Shown here: positions 998-18,221 of the stretch, one piece after another | Layout of the letters: every line of letters begins with the position of its first letter | How positions within the stretch are numbered: the first letter of the stretch is position 1 | IMG/VR virus record: IMGVR_UViG_2802429244_000013 | Span: 1-38,936 of that record | From: a virus | Lineage: Duplodnaviria > Heunggongvirae > Uroviricota > Caudoviricetes | Reading direction: 5' to 3' (one strand) | DNA length: 38,936 bases | The notes under the pieces: model-generated | Databases searched by the model: none | The model's input: the letters and a program-made list of their open reading frames with translations, nothing else | What the model was told of the DNA's origin: nothing | Position numbers and translations under genes: made by a program

Positions 998-1023
998 AAA
1001 AAGAGACCGAACACGATTCCTGT
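998..1023 (-). other. 3'-terminal fragment of SdsR/RyeB sRNA, probable prophage attachment core (attR junction)
   Basis: Minus strand reads acaggaatcgtgttcggtctcttttt, which matches the recalled 3' terminator end of SdsR; the match stops after about 25 nt, as expected for a duplicated att core. Confidence 0.4.
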
Positions 1024-1327
1024 TTTCGTCAACAAACAATAAACCCCTTTAAAATTAATGCGTTGAATAAATTTACGTTCATCTTTTAATCCCTAACGCG
1101 TACCATTGCATATTAATACATTCAATTAGTTACCATTTTTTTCGAGTTTTTTAGAGAAATTTTCGGGAATATTTCAGGTCAATCCATGCATACACAAGCA
1201 ATTCCTGTATTGAATAATTCCGTAGCAATTATGTAAAATCATCTCCGGCTGATTTTCATTCAAACTCGCGCTATCGAACGTCCATCAGCCAGCCGTGGCA
1301 CGTTCTTGCATACGACGTGCTACGGTT

Positions 1328-1729
1328 TCATTTATCTCCGACCGGAAACTTCTTATACAAAGTCGATACGCCAACATCATAGATGATCGCCACCTTCTGG
1401 CGAGGAACGCCTGATGCAATTAATCGCCCGGCCTGCGCCCATTGTTCTGGTGTAAGTTTGGGACGACGTCCCCCAATTCGTCCCTGTGCGCGAGCAGCTT
1501 CCAGTCCTGCTTTTGTTCGTTCAACAATCAGTTCACGTTCCATTTCAGCCAGGGCACCCATCACATGGAAGAAAAAGCGTCCCATTGGTGTGCTGGTATC
1601 AATTGAATCAGTCAGACTACGAAAGTTGATGCCTCGTTCGCGCAACTCCTCCACCAGCACGACATTCCAGACAACCAGTGTGTCGCCTGCCGATAATGTC
1701 ACAACTGACTGGCGGGTGGAATTGTGGAA
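1328..1729 (-). pseudogene. pin: DNA invertase remnant (Pin/Gin/Hin serine recombinase), N-terminal catalytic domain missing
   Basis: ORF 1328..1702 encodes the C-terminal part of a Pin-like protein (GDTLVVW, ELRERGINFRSLTDSIDTS, GRFFFHVMGALAEMERE, GRIGGRRPKLT); first codon is GTG, the frame closes 9 codons upstream, and about 15 residues are missing after VVW relative to Pin. Confidence 0.75.
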
Positions 1730-1789
1730 TTAATGCTTGGTGATATCAGCAGTACAGATAAAGAAAAACTATCTGCCTGGATAGAATAC

Positions 1790-1824
1790 AAAAAAGAAGT
1801 AAAAGCCGTCGACACTTCGACGGC
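1790..1824 (-). terminator. rho-independent terminator after the tail fibre operon
   Basis: Stem gccgtcga/tcgacggc with loop cact at 1805-1824, followed on the minus strand by a T-rich tract; sits right after the tfa stop at 1833. Confidence 0.5.
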
Positions 1825-1832
1825 ACCTGAGA

Positions 1833-2240
1833 TTAGCTGGCCTGAACTGCCGGAGGCGTAGGCCATTCAATATCTGGCGCACTGGAGGTATCCACCAGAT
1901 CCAGTGCGTCCAGGTAATCCAGCCACAAATTATATTGCGCCAGTTCCTCGTCTTTCAGACGACCAATAGCCGCTTTACCGGGCCACTGCTTGCTGTTAAT
2001 AAAATCATTTGCAGCACGTATGCGTCCTTCTTTTTCGAGTTCTGCTTCCTGGATTAACTGTTCTTTAGTTTTCTCAGGTTCGGGAGGGGCTGTGAAATTA
2101 TTTCCGTCATAGATCCATCCAATATCAACTGCAACACCAGAGATATTAACTGCCTTAAAATCGGCAAACATATCTCCTGCACCATCCCAAACAACGATAT
2201 TAACAACAATATTGTTTTTAATTAGTGCGTATCTGTTCAT
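1833..2240 (-). CDS. tfa: tail fibre assembly protein (Tfa chaperone)
   Basis: C-terminal Tfa signature LWLDYLDALDLVDTSSAPDIEWPTPP; ATG at 2240 overlaps the tail fibre stop by 1 nt. Confidence 0.8.
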   Translation of the reverse strand: MNRYALIKNNIVVNIVVWDGAGDMFADFKAVNISGVAVDIGWIYDGNNFTAPPEPEKTKEQLIQEAELEKEGRIRAANDFINSKQWPGKAAIGRLKDEELAQYNLWLDYLDALDLVDTSSAPDIEWPTPPAVQAS

Positions 2241-3292
2241 TAGCCGTATACCCACAAAATCGCCAGACCGTCAGCCCCTGCTCCACCTGACATAGACACC
2301 CCGGTAGACCCTGAGCCATAAATAGAGACCGCGCCGCTTCCGCCAGAGCCATTGCCTCTGGCATTATTTCCCGCCGATGCATTGACTCCCGAACTAATTC
2401 CGATTGCCACACCGCCCACTCCGAACTCAGAGTCAGCCCCTTTCCCGCCAAGCGCATTTTTATCCGAGAACAGAAATCCAGAGTTTCCACCATACCCGAT
2501 ATGCTGTGCTATCAATTCTGCTCTACCAGGAATGGTGTTATTAGCATTCGGAGACGCTGTAGGCCCGCCGGTTGGCAGAACATTAAATGCTGCCCCCTTA
2601 GCTCCACCTCTCCCACCAGTAGCAGTAATACCGTCGATAATCGTAGCACCACCGTCACTTCCATTAGCTCCGGTTGCGGGAGTTGGCACGCCCCCCGCAC
2701 CACCTGCGCCAATAGTAATATTAATTTTCTGACTGGCATCAACTGTGAATTTTGCTACCACACGGCTACCTGAATTCCCGCCCTGCCCTACTGACGCATA
2801 TCCGGGTTGTACGGTCGTGGAGTTACTGCCACCGCCGCCTCCGCCACCAATCATATCTGCCACAACAAACCTGGCATCTTTCGGCAGTGTAATTTGCCGG
2901 GATGTGTCAATCCGGTACACTGCAATGAGTCTTCCTGTTCCATCTCCCAAACCAAGGTTTTCGAGAGCCGTTTTCACCGTGCCATCCGATTTGATATCAC
3001 CAAACGGATTCTTGCGGCTCAGGTATTCAACAGCAAACCCCGATCCCAGCAATTCAACAAAACCGGGCAGATCACCATTATCAAGCACATCCCGTTGCGT
3101 TTTATCACTTACAAACTGGGCCAGAGCTGCAGCAATAAAGCTGGCCTGCCGAATAACCTTATTGACTTGCGCACTGGAGGCTTTCCCTGCTGTAAATCCG
3201 GATAAAAGCGCAGGCAACGCTTCCCATTCCTTCTGCGACATAACATTGGCATTTTTACCCGTTGCGAATGCTTTAAAGTCATTTTTTGCCAT
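2240..3292 (-). CDS. tail fibre protein with glycine-rich collagen-like repeats
   Basis: 350-aa ORF with a conserved N-terminal fibre attachment region then Gly-rich low-complexity stretches ([15 protein letters not shown]); ATG at 3292 overlaps the upstream stop (ATGA). Confidence 0.75.
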
Positions 3293-3972
3293 CAGAGTAA
3301 TACTCCCCATGCCCCTACATCAAAACCACTGATAAATTCGTTATCCATATCAAAACCAAAAAATTTTGAACCTTCCGATGGGGTTTCCACCGAAGGTGTT
3401 TCAATACCACCCGCCCACACCCCGGCGGCTTTTACTGTGAGATATCCCTGTTTAATTGCAGCAATTAACTCACGCGATACATCTGAAATATCAGTATCAG
3501 GAAAGACCCAGACCGATATCGTCATGTCCTGGTTATCGACAATCTGCATTCGCAGCCCGGATCCTGCTGTCGCCGTGTCAAGAATTGCTGGAAGCGAATC
3601 ATTCCGTCCGTCCCAGTTATTAATCGCAATCTTCGCTTTAAGGATGACACGATAAGTTTCATCGCTGAGATACATGTATCCGGAATCAGGATCATATGGC
3701 CCCTGCCATACCCCCTGATCATATCCAAGCCCGTCGGTATCCCAGCTGAAATAGACACCTGAGATAGGCTGGCTGACAACACGGCTACGTCCGATCCACA
3801 ATCCCAGAATGTCAAGTTGCACACCAACCGCAGAGTCAATATCAAATGCAGTAATCAGCCCTCTGGTGGCCGCCGCAACATCAATAAGCGGCCGGGTCAT
3901 CAGATCAACATGCGCAAGAAATTTAGGTTTGGTGGCGTGGTAGTTCGTGATTAGTTCGGTGTATTTGCTCAT
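3292..3972 (-). CDS. tail or baseplate protein (Mu gp48-like)
   Basis: 226-aa ORF coupled to the baseplate J-like gene upstream and the tail fibre downstream; position matches Mu/SfV-type baseplate clusters. Confidence 0.55.
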
Positions 3973-5168
3973 GACTCCACCGTTATAACGATATTTTCCG
4001 GGGTACAGGACGCAGATTCGTTGTATCTGATATCAATGTTTGATGACGACAAAGCCCCCGGGGATTTCCCAATCGTCAGTTCCTGAATATCGTAATAGCG
4101 TGCATTCCCGCCACTCACCACGCCAAGATTCGCCGGTGAGTAAATGCGACTTAAAAGGACCGAATCACCAATCATCAGACTATTGATATAGTCGGAAATA
4201 GCCTGCTGGATCTGCTGCCCTATCTGTGAGGTATAACCCGTAAAAACTTTTAATTTAATCCGGGCATAAACAGGCACATCACTGGAACGCGAGAATTTGA
4301 TTACATGGGGATTGCCGTATTTATCCGGAACCGTAACGGATGTTGTGCCGTGAGTGGCTGTCCCCTGGCCTTTATTCCCTCTGATAGCCTGAGCAATATC
4401 CGTCACATCACCGCCATCTACAATTACAGCAACAGAGTGTGGCGGTAACCCGTTACCGTCCTCCGAACCAGTATCGTTTTCATAGAGTTTGTGGCGGGTT
4501 ACACCGGTAACATTAGAAACAGCACCATCCAGTGCTTCAAATGGGGTTATTGATGGCAACGCAACACTTTGCGACTGGCGGATACGTAACTCCGCATCAG
4601 TTTCTGCCGGAGTGCCCACAGTAGCCGCAGCAGGATTGGTTACCGAAACCCAGCCACGGGTTGGCGTATTAATTTCAGTGATTGTTCCAGCCAGCGCCGC
4701 CACTGCACCACTGACGGAACATGTTGCGGTCGCCATCACTGTACCATCCACGCCGACCACCACTGAAGCAGGCAAACGCCATATCACATTATTACTGTCT
4801 TTCACGCTGCCATTAATGATGGTTGTTCCGGCAGTTCCTGTAAGAAGCAAATCAACCGTAGAGTTCGTCGCGCCTTTACGTGAAATACCATTTATTTTCA
4901 CGTTACTGGTCAGTGCAGCCCCATAGCCGGTTGCCGGTGAAAAACAGTTGTAGACAGTTATCGCCATATTATTGGCATCATGAATCGCCAGCGCCATCAG
5001 AGCCACCATCTGGCCGTCTTTGCTGTCCGGTTCGAGGTAGGCATCACTGCCATAAATCTGCTGAAAATAGCTAATCAGGGTGCTGAGTATCGTCTGATAA
5101 TCAGGCGCACTGATCCCCTCTGCGGTTACCTTTGCAGATAAACCGAGAGAATCAAGGTTCAGAGCCAT
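3969..5168 (-). CDS. baseplate J-like protein
   Basis: 399-aa ORF with typical size and position for the baseplate J / Mu gp47 family; stop and start overlap its neighbours. Confidence 0.7.
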   Translation of the reverse strand: MALNLDSLGLSAKVTAEGISAPDYQTILSTLISYFQQIYGSDAYLEPDSKDGQMVALMALAIHDANNMAITVYNCFSPATGYGAALTSNVKINGISRKGATNSTVDLLLTGTAGTTIINGSVKDSNNVIWRLPASVVVGVDGTVMATATCSVSGAVAALAGTITEINTPTRGWVSVTNPAAATVGTPAETDAELRIRQSQSVALPSITPFEALDGAVSNVTGVTRHKLYENDTGSEDGNGLPPHSVAVIVDGGDVTDIAQAIRGNKGQGTATHGTTSVTVPDKYGNPHVIKFSRSSDVPVYARIKLKVFTGYTSQIGQQIQQAISDYINSLMIGDSVLLSRIYSPANLGVVSGGNARYYDIQELTIGKSPGALSSSNIDIRYNESASCTPENIVITVES

Positions 5169-5521
5169 TACGCCTCCGATGTAACAGTCGTTATTCCATA
5201 GAGAGTGTCGATTTCAGCGGAAAACATGACACGTCGGGTCGTGGTATCCACCGTCGTATTGAAAGAGAGGATTGATTTAACGCCCTGCGTTTCCAGAATG
5301 CGTTTTCTGATCGCTAGGTTGTAAGTTTCCGGTTTTTGCCTGCCCAGCACAGACTGGATCCACGGAGTCCCTTCGGTGGTGTCGAGAAACCATTGCCCAT
5401 ACCACAATTCGAATCGCGTTTTCACAGCCTGCGCCACGGCCTCAGGCGAGTTAATCAGCCAGGTGTCATCACCGCTGCCAAAGGTGTAATCGCCATCGGC
5501 GTCTTCACGTCTGTATCGCAT
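5168..5521 (-). CDS. baseplate protein (GPW/gp25-like)
   Basis: 117-aa ORF between the baseplate V-like and J-like genes; 1-nt overlap at both ends. Confidence 0.55.
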   Translation of the reverse strand: MRYRREDADGDYTFGSGDDTWLINSPEAVAQAVKTRFELWYGQWFLDTTEGTPWIQSVLGRQKPETYNLAIRKRILETQGVKSILSFNTTVDTTTRRVMFSAEIDTLYGITTVTSEA

Positions 5522-6273
5522 CAGTTTACCCCGTCGGTACTGCTTCCACCGCGCTGAACACCGCCATGAGTGTGCGTATCATCGATTGGCTTGCCGTTAG
5601 CCTTAACGCTCCCCAAGAACTCAACAGCACCAGTGATTTTTGAAGCCACGCCAGAAACAACAGACCCCACCATACCTCCCATCCAGGTTAACAGGCCATG
5701 AATGGTTACTTTCTCAGAAAAATCAGCCAGAGGGGCAACCACATCAAGGCCCCCCGGAGCGACAATTTTAATTTTCCTGGTATCAGGATTAAGCTCAAAA
5801 TAGGTGCTGCCGTCATCACTACGCAACTGTGTGGCACTGGTATTAATACCGCTAATCTTCCTTGCCTGCGACTGGGGACCGACAATACAAAACGCATCCG
5901 ATAAATCATGCATTCTGTCATCGACCGGCTCCTGTATCCCGCCACTCTGCCACCAGAAATCAATACAACGATCGGCAAAAATCACCAAACATTCATCACC
6001 GGCTTTAACTGGAAAAGTCAACGTACAGCCTCCGCCGCGCGGAAATACCACTGGCACATCCACCAGCAGGGGTAATGTCGTCGACTGGTTGATTCCATTT
6101 GAGTCCGGCTCATAGCCTTTAATCGCAGGTTGAACAACCACTGTTACCGTGTCCGGATCAAATGACTGGACGATGCCGGGCATAGAAACACGCAGCGCCG
6201 ACATGACAGAGCCAGCAAGTCTTACATCGGCCTGTTCTTTGCTACCAAGTTGAGCGCTTAAAGAAACGGGCAT
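5521..6273 (-). CDS. baseplate assembly protein V / spike (Mu gp45-like)
   Basis: 250-aa ORF with the N-terminal region typical of phage baseplate V proteins; position in the baseplate cluster. Confidence 0.6.
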   Translation of the reverse strand: MPVSLSAQLGSKEQADVRLAGSVMSALRVSMPGIVQSFDPDTVTVVVQPAIKGYEPDSNGINQSTTLPLLVDVPVVFPRGGGCTLTFPVKAGDECLVIFADRCIDFWWQSGGIQEPVDDRMHDLSDAFCIVGPQSQARKISGINTSATQLRSDDGSTYFELNPDTRKIKIVAPGGLDVVAPLADFSEKVTIHGLLTWMGGMVGSVVSGVASKITGAVEFLGSVKANGKPIDDTHTHGGVQRGGSSTDGVN

Positions 6274-6291
6274 TCATATGTCTCCAGAAAG

Positions 6292-6316
6292 TAAAAAACC
6301 CGCCGGGTGGCGGGTT
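6292..6316 (-). terminator. rho-independent terminator of the small membrane protein gene
   Basis: Hairpin cccgcc-gggt-ggcggg at 6299-6314 followed on the minus strand by TTTTTT, 17 nt after the stop at 6333. Confidence 0.55.
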
Positions 6317-6332
6317 CATTATTGAAGTTTCA

Positions 6333-6572
6333 TTACTGCTTGTTTGCTTCTAACGCTTCAGCTATTCGGCGAAGATACTCATTGTTTTTAAATGAAACCA
6401 TGATGCACTCAAAGAATATTCGGCAAAATACAGCACATAACAAAAGCACTAAAGCGCCAGCAGCCTTCCCATTAACAAACGTTATAATGGCGGCAACAAC
6501 CAGAAGTAACATTGTGATGCCATACAGAACGTTGATGATTTTTGGAGTTATTAATTTATCAAATCCGAACAT
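6333..6572 (-). CDS. small hydrophobic membrane protein (79 aa), moron
   Basis: Two predicted transmembrane segments; AAGGAA RBS; own promoter and terminator; inserted between baseplate genes. Confidence 0.6.
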   Translation of the reverse strand: MFGFDKLITPKIINVLYGITMLLLVVAAIITFVNGKAAGALVLLLCAVFCRIFFECIMVSFKNNEYLRRIAEALEANKQ

Positions 6573-6608
6573 GCGACAAATTCCTTATCGTGAAAGTAGA
6601 AGTATCAC

Positions 6609-6636
6609 ATTATAATTACGGGTGATTAATCAACAA
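6609..6636 (-). promoter_or_regulatory. sigma70-like promoter for the small membrane protein gene
   Basis: Minus strand TTGTTG (6631-6636), 16-nt spacer, TATAAT (6609-6614), about 35 nt upstream of the start codon. Confidence 0.4.
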
Positions 6637-6711
6637 TCTTTTTGCATGGAAAGGAACCGATGATTTTCGGCGCATCCATGCTGTTCTGCAGAAGCTGGAC
6701 GCCAATGTAAT

Positions 6712-7047
6712 TCACTTCACCTTCCGGCAATCATACGTCCAGAACTCCCGAGGCTCGTCCATATTTTTGCGGATAACTTCAACGTTGAGGATCGCTTTTT
6801 TGTTTCGTTTGATGTAGTCCATACCTAACCAACGTCCAGTATTAGGATCAGGTAACATCCATTGCATCATGACATTATCGAAATCGTCTTTTTGTTTCAA
6901 AAAGGTCATTTTTTGTGTTTCTGGCTTTTGACCATTGATGTGCATGAGGCCATCATTACCAGCATCAAAGCGGAATGGTCCGCACTGCGTTGCCGCCGAA
7001 ACTGTTAACGGCAGGGCCAAGAATAAACAAAAAAATACTTTTTTCAC
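6712..7047 (-). CDS. small secreted protein with N-terminal signal peptide (111 aa)
   Basis: MKKVFFCLFLALPLTVSAATQ is a signal peptide; GTG start with GGAG RBS, overlapping the upstream stop (GTGA); no family recognised. Confidence 0.5.
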   Translation of the reverse strand: MKKVFFCLFLALPLTVSAATQCGPFRFDAGNDGLMHINGQKPETQKMTFLKQKDDFDNVMMQWMLPDPNTGRWLGMDYIKRNKKAILNVEVIRKNMDEPREFWTYDCRKVK

Positions 7048-8078
7048 TCTACATCTCCGACTTTGTCCAAAGTGCCTTTTGCCAATAGTTCTTTGCCACC
7101 TTTAGCCAGGCAAAGCAGGTCCATATACCACGCCTGCCCTCGGGTGTCGCCAGTATAATCAATGCTGCCCACAATGTAATCACCGTCAGTATTAATGCTG
7201 GCAGGCTGTGACATGCCTGGCAGACCGTTAACGTAGAGATTACCGTCGCTTTCAGACTCATCCAGTCGTGCTGGCGATTTCGCTACCTGGTCATTACTCA
7301 AAGAGGCACGGTATACAGATGCCTGATCCAGACGAATAAGCCCACCGAGCTTAATATTTGGATTAATCAGGCATCTGACATTTACGCCAGCTCCCATCGT
7401 CTGCTGTGGCATACCGATAAGCCCGGTGTTAGCATTCAACACCGTAGCAACACCAATATATTTATCTTCAGGAACAATATTTACCAGATTATTTTCATAC
7501 CACCAGTTAGCCTTACACTGCCCTGCGATATGATTCATCAACCTTGATGTGTTTTGATAAACAACGCGACCCCGGGGAAATACCGTTTCAGGCATGTCAG
7601 GAACTGCGCCGGATTCGATGCCATATGGTTCGAATGATTTCATACCCAGACTGAAAAGATCTCTGTACTTCCAGCCAGCTGCCACTGTGGTTTTCACACT
7701 TGCGTTCAGGTGGCCTTCCCAGCTGTCAATACACTGCAACATGATCCAACTGTCTGTGGCATTATCTTTACCAGTGACAGTAAAACGGATATCTCCATTG
7801 AATATCATACCAACGTTTTCATCAGGATAATTACCTGCTGCATCCGGTTGCCCCTTGTATCCGGCAATAACCTGTATACGCGAAAACTCCTTCTGCATAA
7901 TCCGGTTCTGAGTGGTAGGAGACAGGTTATAAACCTTAAAATTTCCAACGAATCCATTAAATATGGTCGCAGGCATTTTCTGAATATTGAAAGTGACTTT
8001 AAGCTCAGAAATTTTTATCCCATCGCCCTTATCATCAACAAGCAATAATTCAAAGTGACGCATCCAGTTTTTCGACAT
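7044..8078 (-). CDS. baseplate hub or tail protein (Mu gp44/P-like)
   Basis: 344-aa ORF with ATG start confirmed (MSKNWM); size and position fit the P-like baseplate protein of Mu/SfV-type tails. Confidence 0.5.
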   Translation of the reverse strand: MSKNWMRHFELLLVDDKGDGIKISELKVTFNIQKMPATIFNGFVGNFKVYNLSPTTQNRIMQKEFSRIQVIAGYKGQPDAAGNYPDENVGMIFNGDIRFTVTGKDNATDSWIMLQCIDSWEGHLNASVKTTVAAGWKYRDLFSLGMKSFEPYGIESGAVPDMPETVFPRGRVVYQNTSRLMNHIAGQCKANWWYENNLVNIVPEDKYIGVATVLNANTGLIGMPQQTMGAGVNVRCLINPNIKLGGLIRLDQASVYRASLSNDQVAKSPARLDESESDGNLYVNGLPGMSQPASINTDGDYIVGSIDYTGDTRGQAWYMDLLCLAKGGKELLAKGTLDKVGDVE

Positions 8079-8080
8079 TG

Positions 8081-8383
8081 TTACTCCGTGAAAACATAGA
8101 GGTGTGAGAGCGTTCCAAGATCGAATTGCGTCGGATTCTCCTGCCCTGCCACGTCGCAGAGCACCACCAGAGAAAAACCCAGATCCATATATCGATACTG
8201 TGCCAGCAGGTCAGCCCCAGTAATCATCGGTATACCTGATATAATGGCGGAGCCATTGCTGTCAGCAAGATCCAGAACCCAGTACTCGCCTCGCCAGATG
8301 ACAGACAGGTGATAAACCGAACCGTTAATTGTGGTGGCAAAAGTCTGATTGTCAGCAACCAGTGGGATTTCTACGGCTTGCAT
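8081..8383 (-). CDS. tail protein (100 aa)
   Basis: ORF coupled between the tape-measure-proximal gene and the hub gene. Confidence 0.45.
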   Translation of the reverse strand: MQAVEIPLVADNQTFATTINGSVYHLSVIWRGEYWVLDLADSNGSAIISGIPMITGADLLAQYRYMDLGFSLVVLCDVAGQENPTQFDLGTLSHLYVFTE

Positions 8384-8386
8384 GAA

Positions 8387-9037
8387 TCACCTTCCCAGAA
8401 ATAAATTGCTCAAATACCCATCAACAGTGGAGATACCTTCTTGCGCCATCTGTGGCAGCGATTTCAGAATGGAATTATTCGGCAGCACCGTTGTTTTGGT
8501 GCCTGTATTCTGCACAGCAGACGTTCCGACTCCCTCGGTCATATTGTTTTTCGGGGCAACCCTGACTGACTGCGTGGAGGTAATAATTACTTCCCTGAGG
8601 GTAAGTGTCGCCAGAAGCACATTTTCACTACTCTTATCGGTCGTAACCTCCAGCGTTTTTATCAACATATTGTTGTAAATACGCTTGCCGGTTGTCACAT
8701 CGAAAGGAATACGATTCCGCTGCAGGTTAAGCAGTTCCTGATACAGTTCTTTCGGGCTCAGCCCCAGTAAACTGGTAGCCGTCAGGTTACTGGCAAAATC
8801 AAGCAGCGATCCGCCTCCGGAAAAACCGGTTTCCATCACAACCTCAGAAGGGCGCCTGAATGCGTGTTCTGATATATAACCAGCGCCCTCACCACTGGCA
8901 CCAGCATTCGTGGGCTGTTCAACCGGATGTTCCGTAATTTCCAGGGCGTCAGTGTGCTTTTCGGTAATAACCACATCAGGAATAATGATTCCTATTGAGC
9001 GGGTTCGCTGCTGCAGTAAAACAGATAAAAAGTCCAT
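8387..9037 (-). CDS. tail protein next to tape measure (216 aa), possibly DNA-circulation-like
   Basis: ATG at 9037 overlaps the tape measure stop by 1 nt; synteny with Mu gp43-position genes. Confidence 0.45.
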   Translation of the reverse strand: MDFLSVLLQQRTRSIGIIIPDVVITEKHTDALEITEHPVEQPTNAGASGEGAGYISEHAFRRPSEVVMETGFSGGGSLLDFASNLTATSLLGLSPKELYQELLNLQRNRIPFDVTTGKRIYNNMLIKTLEVTTDKSSENVLLATLTLREVIITSTQSVRVAPKNNMTEGVGTSAVQNTGTKTTVLPNNSILKSLPQMAQEGISTVDGYLSNLFLGR

Positions 9038-11043
9038 TACGCAGGTCCTTTCAATTGCTGTACCGCCCTGGCATTTACAGCCCCCTGCTTGTCAGCGATC
9101 AGATTAGCCGCCTCCTGAGGGTTGTTAACTCCATGAACATTTATAACAGTCTGCTGGTTAAGGCTGCCAGCGGCGGCCTGATACGCCAGCGGGCTGTTCC
9201 AGTTTGAATAACCTTCTTTGCGCGCCATCGACTGCATCAATGCTCCCATAGTCTGGGGATCTGTAAGATTCAATATTGCATTCGGTGATACTCCCATCCA
9301 TTTCGCAACATCCTGTGCATACTTTTTCGGATCGTTGTTATCACCTGCCGGGGCCCAGGTACTGACAATATCCTGAATAGTCTGTAATGCTCGTCCGGTT
9401 GTTTTCCCGGTAAAGTAACGCATGAGCTGGTTTTTCATCGCCTCCCAGCCCTCAAGAGCTGATTCGAAAAACCGGAACCCTTTACCGCTCACCGGGCGAA
9501 TGTTCCCGGGGTTATTGTTGCGATCAGCAAGAGTACCGCCGCCGGGGATGTCGGGCTGGACGTTGGAGCCATGCACTACACCGTTACTCTGTCCCTGCCG
9601 GATAACTTTACCGGGTCCCCCGTGCAACCAGTCCATCCACGCAGGCCATTCACGGACCTCACTGACATCCCTGCGTCCGATATCTGTTTTTATACCAATA
9701 GCAGCCAGCGTGTCGCCGATAATTCGCTTCGTATACCTCAGTGAAGATTTTGCGCTATCGGCAATATTTTCTCTGTCACTAACAATATAGCCCGCGTAAA
9801 GCGCCCACAATTTAAGCCAGGGTGGGACCGGTAAACCTGATATTTTTCCGAAAGCCCCCAGAACCTTGGATACCCAGACACCCGCGATGAATGTACCGAG
9901 GATTTCCAGTGCATTTTGCCAGCCGCCAACACCATCTTTTAGTTCCAGAAGGTGATCACGAAGCCAGGTGATCGCATCCTTCGCTTTATCTATTGCCGGT
10001 TGCCATTTTTCCCAGTCGATAAGACTGTTACCGCCTTCTTTCCATGTTTTGTAGTCTTCCCACAAGAGACCGAGAGCCACGATCAGACCGGTAATCAGCC
10101 CTATAGGTGACATCCAGAAAGTAGAGTTAAGTATCCGCATGGCGACAACCAGACCGCCGATAACCTCTATCAGGGTTTTCGTTTCGGCATCCAGTTTCCC
10201 CCACCACTCGATGATATCGCCGACACCATCGACTATCCGAAATGCTACCCGCCCGACTATCTCACCCAGCCAGAGGATCCCCTTTATGACCTTTGTGATG
10301 GTGACTTCAATTTTGGGAAAATTTTCAATTATCTTTTTGCGCAGGTTATCAATCTGCCCCGCCAGTCCGTCCGCAAGATTCGATCCGATTTTGTCCCGCG
10401 CCATCCCGGCCATTTCACCGAGCGATTTCAGCGAGGTCATAAACCGGTTTGACGATAAGGCAGCCTGATCGGCATTAAATCCGATCGCTTTCACCATTTC
10501 TGAATACTGAGCGCTGAACTGCCCCACACCACGACGCATGGCCATCAGGGTATTTTCGTCAATGCCCAGCATCTGCGCATACTGGTTAGCCCGGTAATAC
10601 GGCATACCGCTGAGCTTCTGGCCTACACCTGTAAAAATAGCGGCCATGTCACGCATGTTGCCGCTGGCATCACGGGTCTGTACGCCCAGGCGATTCAGAA
10701 AGCCTTCTGCTCCGGGATTGTTACGAATAAACCGGGAGAGGCTTTCCAGAGAAGATCGCGCAGCGTCCACACTGCCGCCAACCTGCGAAACCGCATAGCC
10801 AATAGACTGAATTCCCTGGACTGTCGCGCCGGTGCGCTGTGACGCCCAGTAAAGATTATCCAGGCCGGAGGCGATCTTAGCCGTGAAGGCCACCACGGAC
10901 AGCGCAGCTCCTTCAACGGCCAGTCCCATTTTGATGACATTTGCAGTTGTACCGGCGAGGACAGAACCGAACTTTTTCGCTCCTGCATCATCCACACTGA
11001 AGCCAAGCGAGACGAGGAAATCTTTAATAGTTTCAGCGTTCAT
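9037..11043 (-). CDS. tail tape measure protein
   Basis: 668 aa from ATG at 11043 with a strong GGAGAGAGG RBS (the track ORF begins at an upstream TTG); Ala/Gly-rich helical protein with hydrophobic central segments. Confidence 0.8.
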   Translation of the reverse strand: MNAETIKDFLVSLGFSVDDAGAKKFGSVLAGTTANVIKMGLAVEGAALSVVAFTAKIASGLDNLYWASQRTGATVQGIQSIGYAVSQVGGSVDAARSSLESLSRFIRNNPGAEGFLNRLGVQTRDASGNMRDMAAIFTGVGQKLSGMPYYRANQYAQMLGIDENTLMAMRRGVGQFSAQYSEMVKAIGFNADQAALSSNRFMTSLKSLGEMAGMARDKIGSNLADGLAGQIDNLRKKIIENFPKIEVTITKVIKGILWLGEIVGRVAFRIVDGVGDIIEWWGKLDAETKTLIEVIGGLVVAMRILNSTFWMSPIGLITGLIVALGLLWEDYKTWKEGGNSLIDWEKWQPAIDKAKDAITWLRDHLLELKDGVGGWQNALEILGTFIAGVWVSKVLGAFGKISGLPVPPWLKLWALYAGYIVSDRENIADSAKSSLRYTKRIIGDTLAAIGIKTDIGRRDVSEVREWPAWMDWLHGGPGKVIRQGQSNGVVHGSNVQPDIPGGGTLADRNNNPGNIRPVSGKGFRFFESALEGWEAMKNQLMRYFTGKTTGRALQTIQDIVSTWAPAGDNNDPKKYAQDVAKWMGVSPNAILNLTDPQTMGALMQSMARKEGYSNWNSPLAYQAAAGSLNQQTVINVHGVNNPQEAANLIADKQGAVNARAVQQLKGPA

Positions 11044-11272
11044 TATCCTCTCTCCATTTCTCAATGCGCCGCTGGTTATCTGCTTTTACCGCCAGATGGT
11101 CATTCAAGAGAGCAATGTCATACAAATCGACAGAGCCATCTTTAAGTGCTGTATAGGGAATTAACCCGGCGTCAACCGGATTGAGAAGGTAGGACAGCCC
11201 GTCCGGCAGGCTGTTAAACGTCAGCCCTGTTGCAGGCTCTGCGTCGTGCTGGTAAGGGGTGTAGGCAAAAAA
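11033..11272 (-). other. -1 frame extension of the tail assembly chaperone (putative programmed frameshift product)
   Basis: Translated by hand: the -1 frame is open for 79 codons from TTTTTTG (plus 11266-11272) to a TGA at 11033-11035, covering the whole chaperone/tape-measure gap. Confidence 0.55.
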
Positions 11273-11673
11273 TTTCCCAGCGAATCGGCGACCACCCGCG
11301 CCACCAGCTGCAGCATGACCAGCAGGTCAATATCATCAAACATCAGTTCGCCCTGGGTAAATACCGGAACCCATCCGTCCATATGACGCCGCGATACCAC
11401 CGCAAGACAGGGATGAATAATCGCATCGGTGTCATCTTCGGTCAGGGAAGACAGTTCCTCAGCGATACGCGGGAGCATGGTTTCAAACACCGGTTTTAAC
11501 TGCTCTAATTTCACGGTGTCGATTTTGCCATCAGCAGGCAAACGGGAGCGAATGCTCCCGAAATCTGACATCATTCCCGCCAGTACTGGCAGAAGTTTGC
11601 GGGTCACTTTCAGCTGGTCAAAAACGCTGAGTTTTGCCGCGCGATATTTCACGCCTTTAATTTCGAATTCCAT
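11221..11673 (-). CDS. tail assembly chaperone
   Basis: 150-aa ORF immediately upstream of the tape measure gene; -1 frame extension described in findings. Confidence 0.7.
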   Translation of the reverse strand: MEFEIKGVKYRAAKLSVFDQLKVTRKLLPVLAGMMSDFGSIRSRLPADGKIDTVKLEQLKPVFETMLPRIAEELSSLTEDDTDAIIHPCLAVVSRRHMDGWVPVFTQGELMFDDIDLLVMLQLVARVVADSLGNFLPTPLTSTTQSLQQG

Positions 11674-11676
11674 GTA

Positions 11677-12117
11677 TTAAAACTCCCCGAGAACCTGGTC
11701 AATCTTGCCACAGTCAAACACCCACGGCATCGTATTACCGGTTTTAGCGTTGGCGTTATCCGGTTGCTTCTGGAACGCAACACTGCGTGCCGTGATGATG
11801 TCGCCGCTGACCTTGTTGCGGATCACGATAACGTTATTCCCCCATGTGGCAGAAGACTGGCTCTGTGCGTTATACGCCAGCGACAATTTTTTATTTGTCG
11901 GTGATGTCTTCAGAAGGTTAACGGTAATCGTCCCGCTTTTATCTGCATGGAGACTGTGCATCACTTCGCCATCAGCACCGATGGTCATGGTGTTTTTAGG
12001 ACCGCCCATCGCAACCACAATCCCCTCTTCAGAACTTGCCGAACCGTACCCGAGGTCAATCGAACCGGTCGGCCCGGTCAGCGTCGCAGTGACATCCATA
12101 AAAGAATAGGTAGACAT
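11677..12117 (-). CDS. tail tube protein
   Basis: 146-aa ORF between sheath and chaperone; AAGGGGAA RBS. Confidence 0.65.
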   Translation of the reverse strand: MSTYSFMDVTATLTGPTGSIDLGYGSASSEEGIVVAMGGPKNTMTIGADGEVMHSLHADKSGTITVNLLKTSPTNKKLSLAYNAQSQSSATWGNNVIVIRNKVSGDIITARSVAFQKQPDNANAKTGNTMPWVFDCGKIDQVLGEF

Positions 12118-12127
12118 TCACTTCCCC

Positions 12128-13273
12128 TTAGCGAACAACGTTAATCTGTACGTCAGCGTAATGAACCGCGCCTGCAAGTTTTATTGCAGCCTGAATCACC
12201 GGAGCCTTACGGGCTTCACGTTCTGATTGTGCCTGTTCATCCAGCGACTGGGCGTATACGTAATAACCTTTGGGCAGCGTGTCACCTGATGACAACTGGC
12301 CAAGGTCGCCACCGTTCCATACGCCCGGAGCAATCAGTCCATTCTGAACGGCCTGATCCAGTGATTTTTCAACATTTGATAACAGTCGGGTAATACCGGC
12401 TTCAGTCTGGGGAACCTTCGTGGTGCTGGTATAAAGCAGGTTATAGAGGTTGGTCTGCACATAATTCTGTAACCAGTCCAGGCCGTGGCGTTCATCAAAG
12501 AAATCGCCGTTAGCCATCACTCCCTGCTGGAGGATAGCTGTATCATTCTGGTAGTACACGAACACATTGCAGTTTTTTGCATCAAGTGCCGATGCCTGGC
12601 TGACTGTCAGTGTTTCATACCCGACACCCGGCTCCTGCTTAAACTTGAGCGTAATCGCGGTATTACTGCCATTGAAATTAACCGTGAATGCCCGGCCAAA
12701 TGCAGATAACGCAGCGTATTTATTACCCGATGAATACTGAATAAAACTGCGTGAATATCCGGCGGCTTTCAGTTTTGATGCCAAATCATCGCTGGATGCA
12801 GTCTGCAGGCATTTCTCATCGCTTGTCGTAATCGCCAGAATACGGCTTACAGAAGAGGATTCGATCGCCGCAGCCACTTTCAGCCAGTCTGCATCCGGAA
12901 TATCTTCATCGTCTGCAATCCCCAGCCCATACCATGAAGTATAATCAAGCATGGCATTCACAGCCTGCTCCAGCGTCTCAGGCGTGGCCTGTTCGCTGTC
13001 TCCCTTCGTTTTCACCCAACGACCAACAAAAACCTCCTGAGGTTTCGGTGATTGAGAGAAAAACACCTGCGCAGCCTTATATTCTGGTGATTCCACGCCA
13101 AAATCTTTTCCAATATCTTCCGCGGCAGAATAACGGCGAATGCGCTCACTTACCGGAATGATTGTGGACGGGCCGAGAATGAGTAATGCACCAAAATTTC
13201 GCCCTGATGCTGCACGCGGCGACATGATCACATCAACATTAACAACGTTTGATACAGGCAAGCCCTGTGCCAT
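12128..13273 (-). CDS. tail sheath protein
   Basis: 381-aa ORF upstream of the tube gene with a GGAGA RBS; size and position typical of contractile tail sheath. Confidence 0.7.
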
Positions 13274-13276
13274 AGC

Positions 13277-13840
13277 TTAATCTCCGAAAAAGATGACTGG
13301 TGCTTCCACCAGCGATTTAATACCGTACTCACGCACAACCTTCCGGCGCAGGCGCACCGTCATATCGTAGCGGCGGACCCATTGCTGATTAATAAGTTCA
13401 GGGAAGGGAGTCAGACCTGTGTAATCGCCAAGAGACAGCCCCAGCGCATTCAGTGCTGCATTGTTCTGCGGCACAGATATACCGTCACGAAACCGGGACG
13501 CATACACCATCCCCGCCGGTCCATAAAACGAAGCCATACACTCAATCGTTTCATGCCGCCAGAGCTGAGAGCCATCATCGGTCTGTCTGGTGAATGCCGG
13601 ACTGTCATCACCTGACCATCCGATAACCCCAAACGCACACCAGTTCGTTTCAACCGGTAGCAGTGGCGGCTGCTCTTTCTGCCAGCGCGGGCGAACCATC
13701 CCGGCAGACAGACCGGAAACGTTACGCATCCACTGGCTTAACAGCCTGTCGAGCGCTTCGTCATAATCCGGATCGCCACTGGTTGGTATTAACCATCCGC
13801 GCTCTGTACTGGTGTTATTGCTCAACCGGAGTTCCCCCAT
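13277..13840 (-). CDS. phage structural protein, possibly tail terminator or neck
   Basis: ORF starts TTG-ATG, so the ATG at 13840 is taken as the start; lies between head-tail joining genes and the sheath. Confidence 0.4.
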   Translation of the reverse strand: MGELRLSNNTSTERGWLIPTSGDPDYDEALDRLLSQWMRNVSGLSAGMVRPRWQKEQPPLLPVETNWCAFGVIGWSGDDSPAFTRQTDDGSQLWRHETIECMASFYGPAGMVYASRFRDGISVPQNNAALNALGLSLGDYTGLTPFPELINQQWVRRYDMTVRLRRKVVREYGIKSLVEAPVIFFGD

Positions 13841-14204
13841 CAAACGGCATCAACTCACAATGCGCCTGAACGAATCCGGCCCCATAAGCTGTATACGGGT
13901 CGACGAAGGTCACACGATAATCACGGCCCTGATACGTCACGATATCGGCATCACGGCCAGTCTGTCCCTGTGTCAGTCGCTCAGTCGTCACAATCAGAAT
14001 TGCACCACTGATTACCTGCCCGGCCTGCATACGACGGTTTTCCAGAGAGCGATCAACAGTTACGACTCCGGCAAACTGCTTTTTAACTTCGCTGTCGCTG
14101 CCGATCCCGTCCTCATCCACCGTTTGCACACGGCGTGTTACCCACAAATTGAAGTCGCAAAAATCGGGGTCAAAAAGCACATCTGTTACATCAAGAGTCG
14201 GCAT
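13815..14204 (-). CDS. phage structural protein, possibly head-tail connector
   Basis: 129-aa ORF with a GAGGG RBS; overlaps both neighbours. Confidence 0.4.
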   Translation of the reverse strand: MPTLDVTDVLFDPDFCDFNLWVTRRVQTVDEDGIGSDSEVKKQFAGVVTVDRSLENRRMQAGQVISGAILIVTTERLTQGQTGRDADIVTYQGRDYRVTFVDPYTAYGAGFVQAHCELMPFDGGTPVEQ

Positions 14205-14745
14205 TTTTATCCCTCACAACATGGGTAATAGCTCTGCGATATTGCCCGGTGTCAATTAATGGTTTCGCCAGTTCGGTTCCCGGAGATTCGCCAGCAGCAC
14301 GCCGGGCAAGTTCCATTGTTGCCCCCTTGCGCCCCCGACGAGCCCGGGCTTCAACAGTACTGTCAGCAAGCGGCGTAAAGCCGGTAATGGTCATGTAACG
14401 CCTGACGCCATTAGCGGCCAGCGTTCCGGCACGGTTGAGTGCGCGTTCTGCTCCCGCAGCATTACCATCAAGTGCAGCCTGCGCCGCGGCTTTGAGCTGC
14501 GGCACCGTCTGCTCTTCTGCCGATTTAACGCCGGGGACCAGGTGAGGTCGTGGCGGGATGTTCTGCTCTGGTGAGCCGTATTCGTTGAGGTAACCGATGC
14601 CCGCATTACCAAACGGAACATCATCCCGCTCGCTGTCTTCCGAAGGGATGCCGACCAGCACATCTTTTTTGGTTAACGACCTGAGCGCATCCAGAATGGC
14701 CTTAGCGTTATCCACCCTCGTTGTTACACCGCTTTTGAAACTCAT
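14191..14745 (-). CDS. head-tail joining protein (HK97 gp10-like)
   Basis: C-terminal [12 protein letters not shown] resembles the HK97 gp10 family signature; ATGA overlap with the upstream gene. Confidence 0.5.
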
Positions 14746-15149
14746 AGCTGGCGACCACCTGCACCGAACATCGTGATCAACTGATAAAATTCAGCGCCAT
14801 ATCGGGTGTTATTCCAGAAACCTGCATCAGGATTCAGCGTCGCGCTGGTGTCATAGCTGACGCTTACCTTATCCACGGACTTTGAGGACTGAACACCATT
14901 GGTTGAACCGCCCGGACCATCAGCCAGCATCGCTCTGCTGTCAGCCGCCCAGAGCGTCATGTAGTGAGCAACGAACAACCCGGCAAAGTACGGAAACAAC
15001 TTTTTGCCGGTGACATTTTCGCTCAGCAGTTCATCGGCCAGATTCAGACGGAACCCGATTTGGGCGTCGGGATATTTTGCCGGGTCAGCAAATTGCGGGA
15101 AGTCGCGGCGAAAATCACTTACCGCTGGCAGACTTTGATTCTTTGACAT
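14742..15149 (-). CDS. head-tail adaptor-like protein
   Basis: Track ORF 14742..15233; internal ATG at 15149 (MSKNQS) is the likely start. Confidence 0.4.
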
Positions 15150-15483
15150 CTTTAGCCCCATTACCGCCAGTCCGGGCGGCAGTAATCTGCGCCTGCAGGC
15201 TGTCGTTCTGCTCCTGCAGTTTGAGCAATGCATCTTTCAGATCGGCAATCAGCTTATCTTTGTCGGCAATCTGCGCTTGCAGGCCGTCGATAATGGGTTG
15301 CAGATCATCGGTGTCGCTAATCACGCTTTCGGAAAGCTCAGAGTGCGCCTGGGTGAACCAGTGCGACGCGACCTCTTCCGGTACGTTATGCCGTCCCCGG
15401 CCAAACTCCTGTTTTGACTGATCGCCGAGCGTCAGCGTAAACGGGGTGTGAACATGGATGGTAACCAGCTTTTCTTTCGCCAT
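15115..15483 (-). CDS. hypothetical head-region protein with C-terminal coiled coil
   Basis: Track ORF 15115..15714; ATG at 15483 with AAGGAA RBS (MAKEKLV); C-terminus has heptad-like [25 protein letters not shown]. Confidence 0.45.
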
Positions 15484-15523
15484 TTCAGTTTCCTTCAGGC
15501 CCCTTTCGGGGCCATTCTGGTTA

Positions 15524-16465
15524 TCAGATACCGTCCACATAGGACAGAGTTTCTTTATACACTGGCTCGACTGCACCCAGCTTGCCGTAGTAAGTGACGA
15601 TCTGATACAGGCCGCGATACTGCACCGGCACGCTCTGAAGCGGAACCAGCGGGTAGCGGACGTATTTTTTATCGTTGGTGTACGCAACCATGCGATCCTT
15701 ATTCCCCACACCACGGCCTTTCAGCCATTTAACCGCGCGGATATTCAGCGGAACACCGTTCTGGTGATAGCTGATGGTGTTGGTCTGAAGGTACGTCAAC
15801 AGGGACTGGTTACCCGCAGATGAAACGATGATGCTGGACAACAGAGCAAACTGTTCAGGCGGGATCAGCAAATCACGCGGGACCACAGAGTAACCAGAAG
15901 CGGCCCACGCATCAGACAGCACCTGGTTAATGCTTGCGCGGATTTCGTCCGGTGTTGAGGTTGCCCACGTTTTGGCAGCGTTGTTGACAGGCACGCCGTC
16001 CAGGGTAACAAGGCCTTTCAGGTTTAATGCGGAATCGCCAACATATACCTGTTCATCGTTATCCATCTGCCATTTCAGTTGCATCCCGTCATACTTCTGC
16101 GTATCAATCGGGCGGCCGACCTGCTGAGCAGCCTGCAATTCTATGACCGTCCAGCCAAGTTCCATCCCCCACAGGTTCAGCGGGTTACCGGATTTGCCGG
16201 TATCCACGTTCACGCCAGCAATAGCGGTTGAGTCTTTGCCTACCCAGTTTTTGCCATTCGGATTTGCACCAGTACCCGCAGCGGCGAAGCTGGTATTCGT
16301 CCAGCTGGAAATGTCATCTGCGATAGAGACATCTTCACGCAACTGAATATCGCGGGTCCAGGTGTACCCCACCAGTGGCAGGTTCAGCGTCTGGTCGAGT
16401 CGCTCCAGCTCCCCGATGAGAAAGGCACCAGAGCTGTCAACGGTTGCCTGATCAAAAGTAATCAT
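15524..16465 (-). CDS. major capsid protein
   Basis: 313-aa ORF with AAGGAA RBS, following the putative decoration and scaffold genes; size and position typical of a major capsid protein. Confidence 0.7.
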   Translation of the reverse strand: MITFDQATVDSSGAFLIGELERLDQTLNLPLVGYTWTRDIQLREDVSIADDISSWTNTSFAAAGTGANPNGKNWVGKDSTAIAGVNVDTGKSGNPLNLWGMELGWTVIELQAAQQVGRPIDTQKYDGMQLKWQMDNDEQVYVGDSALNLKGLVTLDGVPVNNAAKTWATSTPDEIRASINQVLSDAWAASGYSVVPRDLLIPPEQFALLSSIIVSSAGNQSLLTYLQTNTISYHQNGVPLNIRAVKWLKGRGVGNKDRMVAYTNDKKYVRYPLVPLQSVPVQYRGLYQIVTYYGKLGAVEPVYKETLSYVDGI

Positions 16466-16476
16466 TCGTCTGTTCC

Positions 16477-16983
16477 TTAAATCTTCCAGGAAATTTCTGC
16501 ATTGCCGTTAGCATCACCGGCACCTGTGAATTCAGCGTTGGTCAGCACCACATTTTTGCCACTGACTGACGTGGACATGAATCCACCCAGCGGCACTTTG
16601 ATGGATTCATCAGTGGAGACGACAACGTATACCGGGTCGCCTTTTTTGATAGTGCTGGCATCAAAATCAGAACCGAGATTAACGGTCACGTAGCCACGCT
16701 TCATGGCGTCGCCCGGGAAGTTCTTGCCTGTTCCCACCTGGCGAACCATGTCCGGCTGCGACGTGGTCGGATAAGGGCGCACGTAGATCCCCTTCACCTT
16801 GTCTGCGGTATCACCATCTGCCAGCGGCACGAAAAAACCGTCATCATCGTATTTACCAGCCAGCCCATAGGCAGCGAAGGCGTTATCGGATTTAAGGACC
16901 ACCGGTTCGACGGTTAAGTCCTGCGGGCGAGAGACAGCCCCAGCAATGCCAACAGGCATCCGGTACAGAAATACATTATTCAT
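16477..16983 (-). CDS. head structural protein, possibly decoration
   Basis: 168-aa ORF directly upstream of the major capsid gene. Confidence 0.4.
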   Translation of the reverse strand: MNNVFLYRMPVGIAGAVSRPQDLTVEPVVLKSDNAFAAYGLAGKYDDDGFFVPLADGDTADKVKGIYVRPYPTTSQPDMVRQVGTGKNFPGDAMKRGYVTVNLGSDFDASTIKKGDPVYVVVSTDESIKVPLGGFMSTSVSGKNVVLTNAEFTGAGDANGNAEISWKI

Positions 16984-16986
16984 TTT

Positions 16987-18207: not shown

Positions 18208-18221
18208 GGGTTACCTGCGAT

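Follow-up and report, generated by a model that had tools for sequence, protein, structure and literature searches.

A DUF4282 membrane-hairpin gene as probable moron-type cargo between the hub and spike genes of an Escherichia coli prophage

The DNA analyzed here, referred to as the window, is the whole stretch of 38,936 nucleotides (nt) at positions 1 to 38,936 of the IMG/VR virus record IMGVR_UViG_2802429244_000013. It represents an Escherichia coli prophage with a contractile tail and Rac/lambda-like early and late control. On the minus strand of its baseplate operon lies a gene of 79 codons with an ATG start, which encodes a small membrane protein of the DUF4282 family. The baseplate hub gene and a gene for a secreted protein of 111 amino acids (aa) are located upstream, and the gene of the membrane-puncturing spike is located downstream. 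An initial annotation, made from the letters of the window, had described a two-helix membrane protein gene at this place between baseplate genes, and both the gene and its location were borne out by the open reading frame (ORF), its hydropathy, its structure model and the identity of its neighbours.

The same annotation had recognised no family in the product, which proved to be wrong. The sensitive homology search that it had asked for was run, and the Pfam scan assigned the 79-aa protein to DUF4282 (PF14110) with an E value of 1.2e-10 and 42.2 bits, above the gathering cutoff of 27. The alignment spanned residues 2-71 of the protein and positions 2-85 of the 86 in the profile. No other family scored above its threshold, and a sub-threshold YbhQ match was the only other Pfam match at E <= 0.01. 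The protein also aligned over its full length with phrog_12129 (E 8e-48, residues 1-79 on 1-79 of 79), which PHROG places in the category 'unknown function', and its RefSeq name was already 'DUF4282 domain-containing protein'. The hairpin and the conserved ITP, R-x3-E and F-x-x-N-E positions of the family were all found in it. By its profile score, the 79-aa protein is thus a true member of DUF4282. A total of 87 homologues with 45-99% identity were collected across Enterobacterales, and PF14110 was detected in 87 of 87. The NCBIfam search with the 79-aa protein returned nothing, or noise only, and a profile search of the PDB gave no meaningful match and no solved relative. Foldseek comparison of the model with BFVD found no match with E < 0.1, which says little because a helical hairpin is an uninformative fold.

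The AlphaFold2 model of the protein displayed a predicted local distance difference test score (pLDDT) of 86 and two helices at residues 8-33 and 37-78, and the hydropathy profile agreed with a two-helix membrane hairpin. The predicted topology places both ends inside, with a first transmembrane helix at about residues 12-32, a periplasmic loop at 33-39, a second transmembrane helix (TM2) at about 40-60 and a cytoplasmic amphipathic tail at 61-79. Across the homologues, lysine plus arginine averaged 6.0 in both termini versus 0.6 in the loop; therefore, both ends should be cytoplasmic. The product is very probably an inner-membrane hairpin. The residues I8, T9, P10, I12, Y17, G35, R51, F54 and E55 were invariant among the homologues, as were F61, K62, N63, N64, E65, Y66, L67, R69 and I70, and the tail FKNNEYLRRI was invariant in the phage and enterobacterial subfamily. 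Comparison of the ORF with its homologues gave proportions of nonsynonymous differences (pN) of 0.17-0.35 and of synonymous differences (pS) of 0.66-0.95, with saturated synonymous sites, and the dN/dS ratio was 0.11-0.16 where computable. The 87 homologues and the low pN at saturated synonymous sites indicate that the ORF is a real gene. A 102-aa ORF overlapping it on the plus strand (6307-6615) was rejected, since conservation tracks the minus-strand frame.

The promoter TTGTTG-16-TATAAT and the ribosome-binding site AAGGAA, both read earlier in front of the gene, are present as described, on the minus strand. When both strands of the window were scored with position weights, the promoter-like site ranked 7 among 77,810 positions. 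A consensus scanner missed it because the -35 element TTGTTG matches the consensus at only 3 of 6 positions. The predicted transcription start lies near 6602, and the promoter-like site is identical or near-identical in prophage L006, which carries the second allele (allele B) of the secreted-protein gene. A perfect palindrome of 10 base pairs, TGATTAATCA, covers the -35 element and the spacer (6623-6632) and was considered as an operator. The immunity region has no further copy of it, and with at most one mismatch it had four matches window-wide versus 1.7 expected, a count that 9 of 100 shuffles reached. The operator idea was dropped because this count is within chance.

A second promoter-like site, TCGTGA-17-TATAAT (6588-6616), was observed on the plus strand, where it arises from the palindromic ATTATAAT, with rank 14 among the 77,810 positions. 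It faces away from the DUF4282 ORF and is antisense to the relic described below and to the secreted-protein gene.

The hairpin GAACCCGCCACCCGGCGGGTTT follows 15 nt past the stop codon of the DUF4282 gene and forms the right-hand edge of a cargo slot. With its T-run, it is the strongest structure of this kind inside the structural operon and the top terminator-like site in 1000-20999, where the second is the operon end. Every cargo of the slot ends in an equivalent hairpin with a T-run just before the ribosome-binding site of the spike gene, and these hairpins vary in loop and stem, including the compensatory change CCCAGC/GCTGGG. The hairpin is probably functional. The earlier claim that the gene has its own terminator therefore holds for the presence of the hairpin and fails for its being private, since it is a boundary common to all slot cargos.

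Exchange of cargo at this slot was evident from complete E. coli genomes, whose matches to the window were 98.9-100% identical. The region 5400-8200 was matched in 314 of 5,426 genomes, only 28 of which matched it end to end, and the DUF4282 cassette itself was detected in 83 of the 5,426. Pairwise BLAST delimited the replaced segment to between about 6306/6317 and 6708/6711, with flanks of 95-99.5% identity. The alternatives included two Arc-family genes with a P22AR-type antirepressor (an immI-like module), a 266-aa protein with a 126-aa HEPN_IX-like protein, a 243-aa protein with HEPN_IX-like proteins of 130/142 aa, a 190-aa protein with a YafO toxin, a DUF2335 membrane protein, and a 170-aa unknown protein in phage vB_EcoM-606R2. 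They were seen in prophages L002, L003, L004 and L018-L021, and most had a promoter-like site of their own. The label 'thioredoxin domain', given by the Prokaryotic Genome Annotation Pipeline among the slot matches, does not denote a cargo and belongs to the sheath-initiator gene.

The left-hand joint of the cassette was also recognised. Between the intact upstream allele of the secreted-protein gene and the cassette lies a relic 3' end of allele B, consisting of 24 codons and a stop. Its translation ends in VQLLQNSMDAPKIIGSFPCKKIVD, the 113-aa protein of L006 has the identical C-terminus, and the TAA stop codon of the relic (6628..6626) falls inside the -35 TTGTTGATTAA. Homology of the window to the allele-B prophages ends at 6700. 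The relic marks a recombination joint and indicates that the cassette arrived by recombination, bringing along the tail of its former neighbour.

The initial annotation had called this arrangement moron architecture, and the swapping of cargo between nearly identical flanks, the AT-richness of the cassette and the signals around diverged homologues support it. Following Juhala et al. 2000 and Cumby et al. 2012, morons were looked for as extra DNA differently filled in close relatives, with a base composition unlike that of the neighbours, an upstream promoter and a factor-independent terminator downstream. At least six other cargos occupy the slot in relatives. The G+C content over the cassette (6400-6699) was 0.375-0.38 versus 0.48-0.55 in the spike and downstream genes, a moderate contrast given that the hub gene has low-GC stretches too. 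A promoter lies upstream, as far as the sequence tells, and a factor-independent terminator lies downstream, though common to all slot cargos. Taken together, the DUF4282 cassette is probably accessory, moron-type cargo that the E. coli prophage carries in its late baseplate operon. The coordinates of the main features are collected in Table 1.

Table 1. Features of the DUF4282 cassette, its neighbours and the late control region, in window coordinates
Feature	Position	Strand	Remarks
Membrane-puncturing spike, PF18352 N-terminal domain and GpV Apex motif	5521..6273	-	Pfam scan
Terminator-like hairpin GAACCCGCCACCCGGCGGGTTT and T-run	6290..6317	-	9 pairs, 6 G-C, loop 4
DUF4282 membrane-protein coding sequence, 79 aa, ATG start	6333..6572	-	ORF list and profile matches
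Ribosome-binding site AAGGAA, 8 nt before ATG	6581..6586	-	Sequence
Sigma-70-type promoter-like site, TTGTTG-16-TATAAT	6609..6636	-	-35 at 6636..6631; perfect -10 at 6614..6609
Relic 3' end of allele B of secreted-protein gene, 24 codons and stop	6626..6701	-	Translation
111-aa Sec signal-peptide protein, STY1065/STY2022 family, phrog_3443 (function unknown)	6712..7047	-	
Baseplate hub, E217_gp41-like	7044..8078	-	Pfam scan
Baseplate plug	8081-8383	-	
Dit-like protein	8387-9037	-	
Tape measure	9037-11064	-	
Lambda-family holin	23674-24033		Lysis cassette
Hairpin and T-run about 60 nt past the late-promoter-like site	25948..25932	-	
Late-promoter-like site, TTGACT-18-TATATT	26039..26010	-	Best sigma-70 score in window
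Candidate Q-type late antiterminator (DUF1133)	26036..26710	-	Canonical place before lysis genes

All genes located at 2.2-11 kb displayed the minus-strand orientation. They were arranged as tape measure, Dit-like protein, baseplate plug, hub, 111-aa protein, 79-aa ORF and spike, followed by sheath initiator, Baseplate_J, wedge and fibre. The ribosome-binding site of the spike gene, GGAG (6285..6282), is situated directly past the slot terminator. The start of the 111-aa protein gene overlaps the hub stop, and its product has a predicted signal-peptide cleavage after VSA and two conserved cysteines. Its position is conserved in E. coli, Erwinia and Pectobacterium, with at least two divergent alleles. 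Being secreted, the 111-aa protein cannot be a cytoplasmically assembled part of the baseplate, and it may be the product of a second envelope-acting accessory gene.

In a close relative of the window prophage, a contractile tail is combined with Rac-like early genes and a lysis cassette of the lambda type. In the window, the lysis cassette lies at about 22.8-24.0 kb. Next to the holin gene, the ORF 23194-23670 had no Pfam family, and its counterpart in L005, a related prophage of strain PEC422, is annotated as glycoside hydrolase family 24. The candidate late antiterminator matched PF06576 with E 1e-107 and PF06530 (Phage_antitermQ) marginally, at 26.6 bits versus a cutoff of 26. The arrangement of promoter-like site and hairpin at 25932..26039 appears to match the pR'/tR' layout annotated in P22. 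A 179-aa DUF2441 gene was observed on the plus strand (24252-24791) between the ORF6N and holin genes, inside the late transcription unit, and L005 has no annotated gene at this position. It may be another moron.

A scan of IMG/VR for homologues of the DUF4282 gene yielded 78 loci in 46 distinct contexts. A neighbour search with the single protein reached close relatives only, and the query with an alignment reached further. A hairpin with a T-run was located at most 45 nt from the DUF4282 stop codon in 45 of the 46 contexts. In 31 of them, an ORF that occupies the tape-measure position and is at least 600 aa long ended 0-61 nt before the gene, and this placement occurred in at least three tail types, namely Klebsiella prophages with a TMP_3 tape measure, a lineage with the order sheath, tube, chaperone and tape measure, and the type of phage GF-2. 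The hub-spike slot also holds a DUF4282 gene in Pectobacterium and Erwinia. Other placements were before a J-like gene of 1,069 aa, near terminase genes, and in cargo regions beside gtrABC. DUF4282 genes are frequent in prophages and were found in 2 of 50,697 records of isolated phages. The gene order in GF-2 is tape measure, DUF4282, Arc, Arc and Ant.

The control signals were retained around many of these homologues. A strong promoter-like site about 30 nt before the gene and a terminator after it also accompanied homologues that had diverged to 56-73% identity and occur in other genera and slots. Among the closer homologues (at least 56% identity), 13 of 16 had a promoter-like site with a background fraction of at most 0.04, located about 30-55 nt before the ATG. 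In one distant lineage the DUF4282 gene abuts the tape-measure gene and has no promoter-like site; thus, expression confined to the lysogen does not hold for the family as a whole. In locus L099, a prophage of the type in which the gene abuts the tape measure, the DUF4282 gene was followed by two ORFs of 97 and 118 aa on the opposite strand (6317-6976, minus strand) and then by the next tail gene. These two ORFs might, as a guess from their sequences, be a toxin-antitoxin pair.

The junction of the tape-measure and Dit genes was found to be a variable slot in a distant contractile-tail lineage (IMG/VR loci L173-L209). The same DUF4282 subfamily occupied it in 28 of 37 loci and diverged DUF4282 genes did so in three. 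The other contents were unrelated membrane proteins of 66-78 aa or a secreted protein of 245 aa. In two loci (L201 and L202) the slot was empty and the hairpin was retained, and throughout L173-L209 the conserved hairpin with a T-run always preceded the Dit-like gene. An empty or differently filled slot implies that the DUF4282 gene is dispensable for virion production. Judged by the predicted products, the tape-measure/Dit and hub-spike slots gather envelope-targeted cargo.

Orthologues of 78-98 aa were also found on chromosomes outside prophages, in species-representative genomes (L100-L168), and they carry the tail FKNNEYLR[RK]IAE. They are located between accA and yaeR/tilS in cryptic Escherichia species and Pseudocitrobacter, between genes of MocR-type regulators in Enterobacter, Lelliottia and Leclercia, and beside LuxR/SDR genes across Serratia. 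An exhaustive search with the DUF4282 profile gave 620 cluster representatives at E <= 1e-3. Some of these, from bacteria other than enterobacteria, are proteins of 341-632 aa that hold five to six DUF4282 hairpins in tandem (P0124, P0126, P0141, P0162, P0231 and P0232), and two of them, P0141 and P0162, have C-terminal Cys-x2-Cys motifs resembling zinc ribbons. The pattern ITP ... R-x3-E ... F-x-x-N-E recurs in every hairpin of the tandem proteins and is a family-wide motif. The five to six tandem hairpins hint that proteins with one hairpin may work as oligomers, namely as 5-6-mers. For a six-repeat protein, AlphaFold2 gave a model (pLDDT 60, predicted template modelling score 0.42) that was too poor for the recognition of a ring or pore.

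From these data the following operation can be proposed. In the lysogen, host RNA polymerase would start at TTGTTG-16-TATAAT and produce a monocistronic messenger RNA of about 310 nt, and this transcript would stop at the hairpin (6317..6293), leaving the spike gene silent. Upon induction, the Q-like protein would modify polymerase starting at the late promoter, and the modified polymerase would pass the slot and the other terminators, transcribing hub, cargo and spike together. The spike gene lies past the slot hairpin and therefore late transcription must read through it. The DUF4282 protein would insert, probably in oligomeric form, into the inner membrane. By analogy with known exclusion proteins, it could then block genome entry of a superinfecting phage, either by interfering with the conduit of tape measure and tail tip or, on the host side, by occupying a conserved inner-membrane factor required by the conduit. 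We give this combined explanation, a moron cassette expressed in the lysogen whose product blocks genome entry, a probability of roughly 0.4. In its favour count the swapping of the cassette, the signals of a transcription unit, the recurrent placement beside genes of DNA delivery, the parallels with HK97, T4 and P22, and the scarcity of the gene among isolated phages. Superinfection exclusion as the function of the 79-aa protein, which the initial annotation had named along with membrane-acting defence as typical cargo of this kind, is a tentative assignment by analogy with HK97 gp15, T4 Imm and P22 SieA.

Several observations weigh against this explanation. The terminator is present even in the empty slots of another lineage and is not gene-specific evidence. 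In the distant lineage and in GF-2, where the gene lies 0-16 nt past the tape-measure gene and has no promoter-like site, at least late co-transcription has to be assumed. BLASTP of the DUF4282 protein against the exclusion proteins gp15 of HK97 and SieA of P22 gave no alignment at E <= 100, the models of PADLOC-DB 2.0 contained no matching family at E <= 0.1, and no mention of DUF4282 or PF14110 was found in literature searches. Conservation was highest in the N-terminus (0.80) and the C-terminal tail (0.79), both predicted to be cytoplasmic, and lowest in the periplasmic loop (0.40). The invariant motif is moreover common to phages with unrelated tails and to the chromosomal non-phage orthologues. 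Conserved cytoplasmic parts of this distribution favour a host or cytoplasmic partner over recognition of the tape measure. Literature on phrog_12129 and STY1065 offered nothing relevant, and DUF4282 was absent from a review of superinfection exclusion. A wider proposal makes the DUF4282 hairpins a widespread, hitherto unrecognised family of inner-membrane exclusion proteins in temperate Enterobacterales phages, derived from a small chromosomal membrane protein, with rings of five to six subunits that would block the conduit or a host factor from the side of the cytoplasmic leaflet. We regard this wider proposal as unlikely.

The chromosomal orthologues bring in another explanation, namely conversion of host physiology. 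The prophage copy would act like these orthologues and benefit the lysogen with no action on phages, for instance as a small inner-membrane regulator or adaptor whose cytoplasmic motifs contact a conserved host membrane protein involved in transport, stress or the envelope. The occurrence of FKNNEYLR[RK]IAE proteins in non-phage contexts, the predicted cytoplasmic side of the invariant residues, and the presence of the motif core even in the tandem proteins of bacteria other than enterobacteria are all consistent with such a role. However, it leaves unexplained why the gene is placed repeatedly beside tape-measure, spike and J-like genes of several tail types, and why it shares its slot with immunity, toxin and HEPN cargo. 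Chromosomal relatives are also no bar to exclusion, as HK97 gp15 has them in YebO and yet is an exclusion protein. We consider host-physiology conversion somewhat unlikely.

The gene could also be a helper of the late lytic cycle, made together with the tail genes. It would then tune the timing of lysis as a holin or antiholin does, shield the membrane from the hydrophobic tape measure while tails are assembled, or act like Imm of phage T4, which is made during infection and not in the lysogen. Such a role agrees with the genes found 0-16 nt past the tape-measure stop with no promoter-like site (the distant lineage, GF-2 and L092/L099) and with the late read-through in which the window gene must be transcribed too, and the small size, two transmembrane helices and charged C-terminus resemble class II holins. 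However, the gene is dispensable, as the slot is empty in L201 and L202 and holds unrelated cargo elsewhere, and most E. coli relatives of the window prophage have no DUF4282 gene. A complete lysis cassette exists elsewhere in the prophage, non-phage chromosomal orthologues exist, and the promoter-like site in the window scores high. The Pfam scan of the 79-aa protein gave no match to holin families, and the gene is located outside the lysis cassette. A role as late helper is therefore improbable. The readings of the product as a holin or as a type I toxin were rejected on context, size and chromosomal orthologues.

Abortive infection by a membrane-acting, toxin-like effector, in which an oligomeric pore or ring would depolarise the membrane upon infection, is still less well matched by the data. 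The tandem proteins hint at 5-6-mers, an invariant Arg51/Glu55 pair lies within TM2, and toxin-type cargo (YafO and HEPN-like) occupies the same slot in other prophages. Against this, the cassette lacks a gene for a partner or antitoxin, the orthologues on chromosomes stand alone, PADLOC gave no match, and the six-repeat model was too poor to reveal a ring or pore; an effector of this kind is less probable still. Finally, a chance ORF or annotation artefact over an intergenic regulatory region, which the shortness of the gene and the overlapping plus-strand ORF could suggest, is refuted by the 87 homologues, all with PF14110, by low pN at saturated synonymous sites, by the invariant motifs and by the confident AlphaFold2 model, and its probability is negligible.

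As it stands, the DUF4282 cassette is an ordinary, well-behaved moron. If the exclusion reading is true, it would supply a first function for DUF4282 and a compact 79-aa addition to the few known inner-membrane blockers of phage genome entry, as a third sequence-unrelated solution beside HK97 gp15 and T4 Imm. The hub-spike and post-tape-measure junctions would then be predictable places to mine for envelope-acting anti-phage cargo. If it fails, the locus still shows cleanly how recombination exchanges morons, and the relic of the upstream allele provides a datable joint.

The closest parallel to the proposed role is gp15 of HK97, a 62-aa inner-membrane exclusion protein whose moron separates the tail chaperone gene from the tape-measure gene (Juhala et al. 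2000 and Cumby et al. 2012, reviewed in PMC3594210). In both cases the gene of a small inner-membrane protein lies in the tail operon beside the genes of DNA delivery. The two loci share their anatomy. A small ORF begins shortly after the structural gene before it and is followed by a CCCGC...GCGGG terminator with a T-run, and the structural gene that comes next has its ribosome-binding site and start within some 13-20 nt of that terminator. Both proteins have enterobacterial chromosomal homologues outside prophages. Those of gp15 are YebO proteins, and HK97 was unaffected by YebO itself (PMC3594210). The Pfam scan detected no YebO family in the 79-aa protein, which is longer than gp15, has two helices and belongs to another Pfam family. 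The gp15 gene precedes a siphovirus tape-measure gene, whereas the window gene is placed between the hub and spike genes of a contractile tail and its homologues mostly follow the tape measure. Exclusion has been demonstrated for gp15, while for the DUF4282 protein it is proposed by analogy.

Imm of T4 is an inner-membrane helical protein of 83 aa that blocks genome translocation, and it binds the tape-measure protein according to a 2026 preprint. The DUF4282 protein resembles it as a small, phage-encoded, helical protein of the inner membrane. Imm differs in its model, which has four helices and places the N-terminus in the periplasm, and in being made in lytic infection by a virulent phage and not from a prophage moron. 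The Imm family had no match in the Pfam scan of the 79-aa protein at E <= 0.01, which was a scan at the family level only.

The third parallel is P22, whose annotated order is gene 16, sieA, mnt, arc and ant. P22 is a short-tailed phage with no tape measure, and SieA is a 164-aa protein encoded on the opposite strand with its own promoter. The likeness lies in the layout. In P22, too, an accessory island sits in the late operon, between the genes of DNA delivery and the tail spike gene, and it pairs the inner-membrane exclusion protein SieA with an Arc/Ant immunity module. The slot of the E. coli prophages holds in alternation either DUF4282 or Arc/Arc/Ant, and in GF-2 the order of tape measure, DUF4282, Arc, Arc and Ant mirrors that of gene 16, sieA, mnt, arc and ant.

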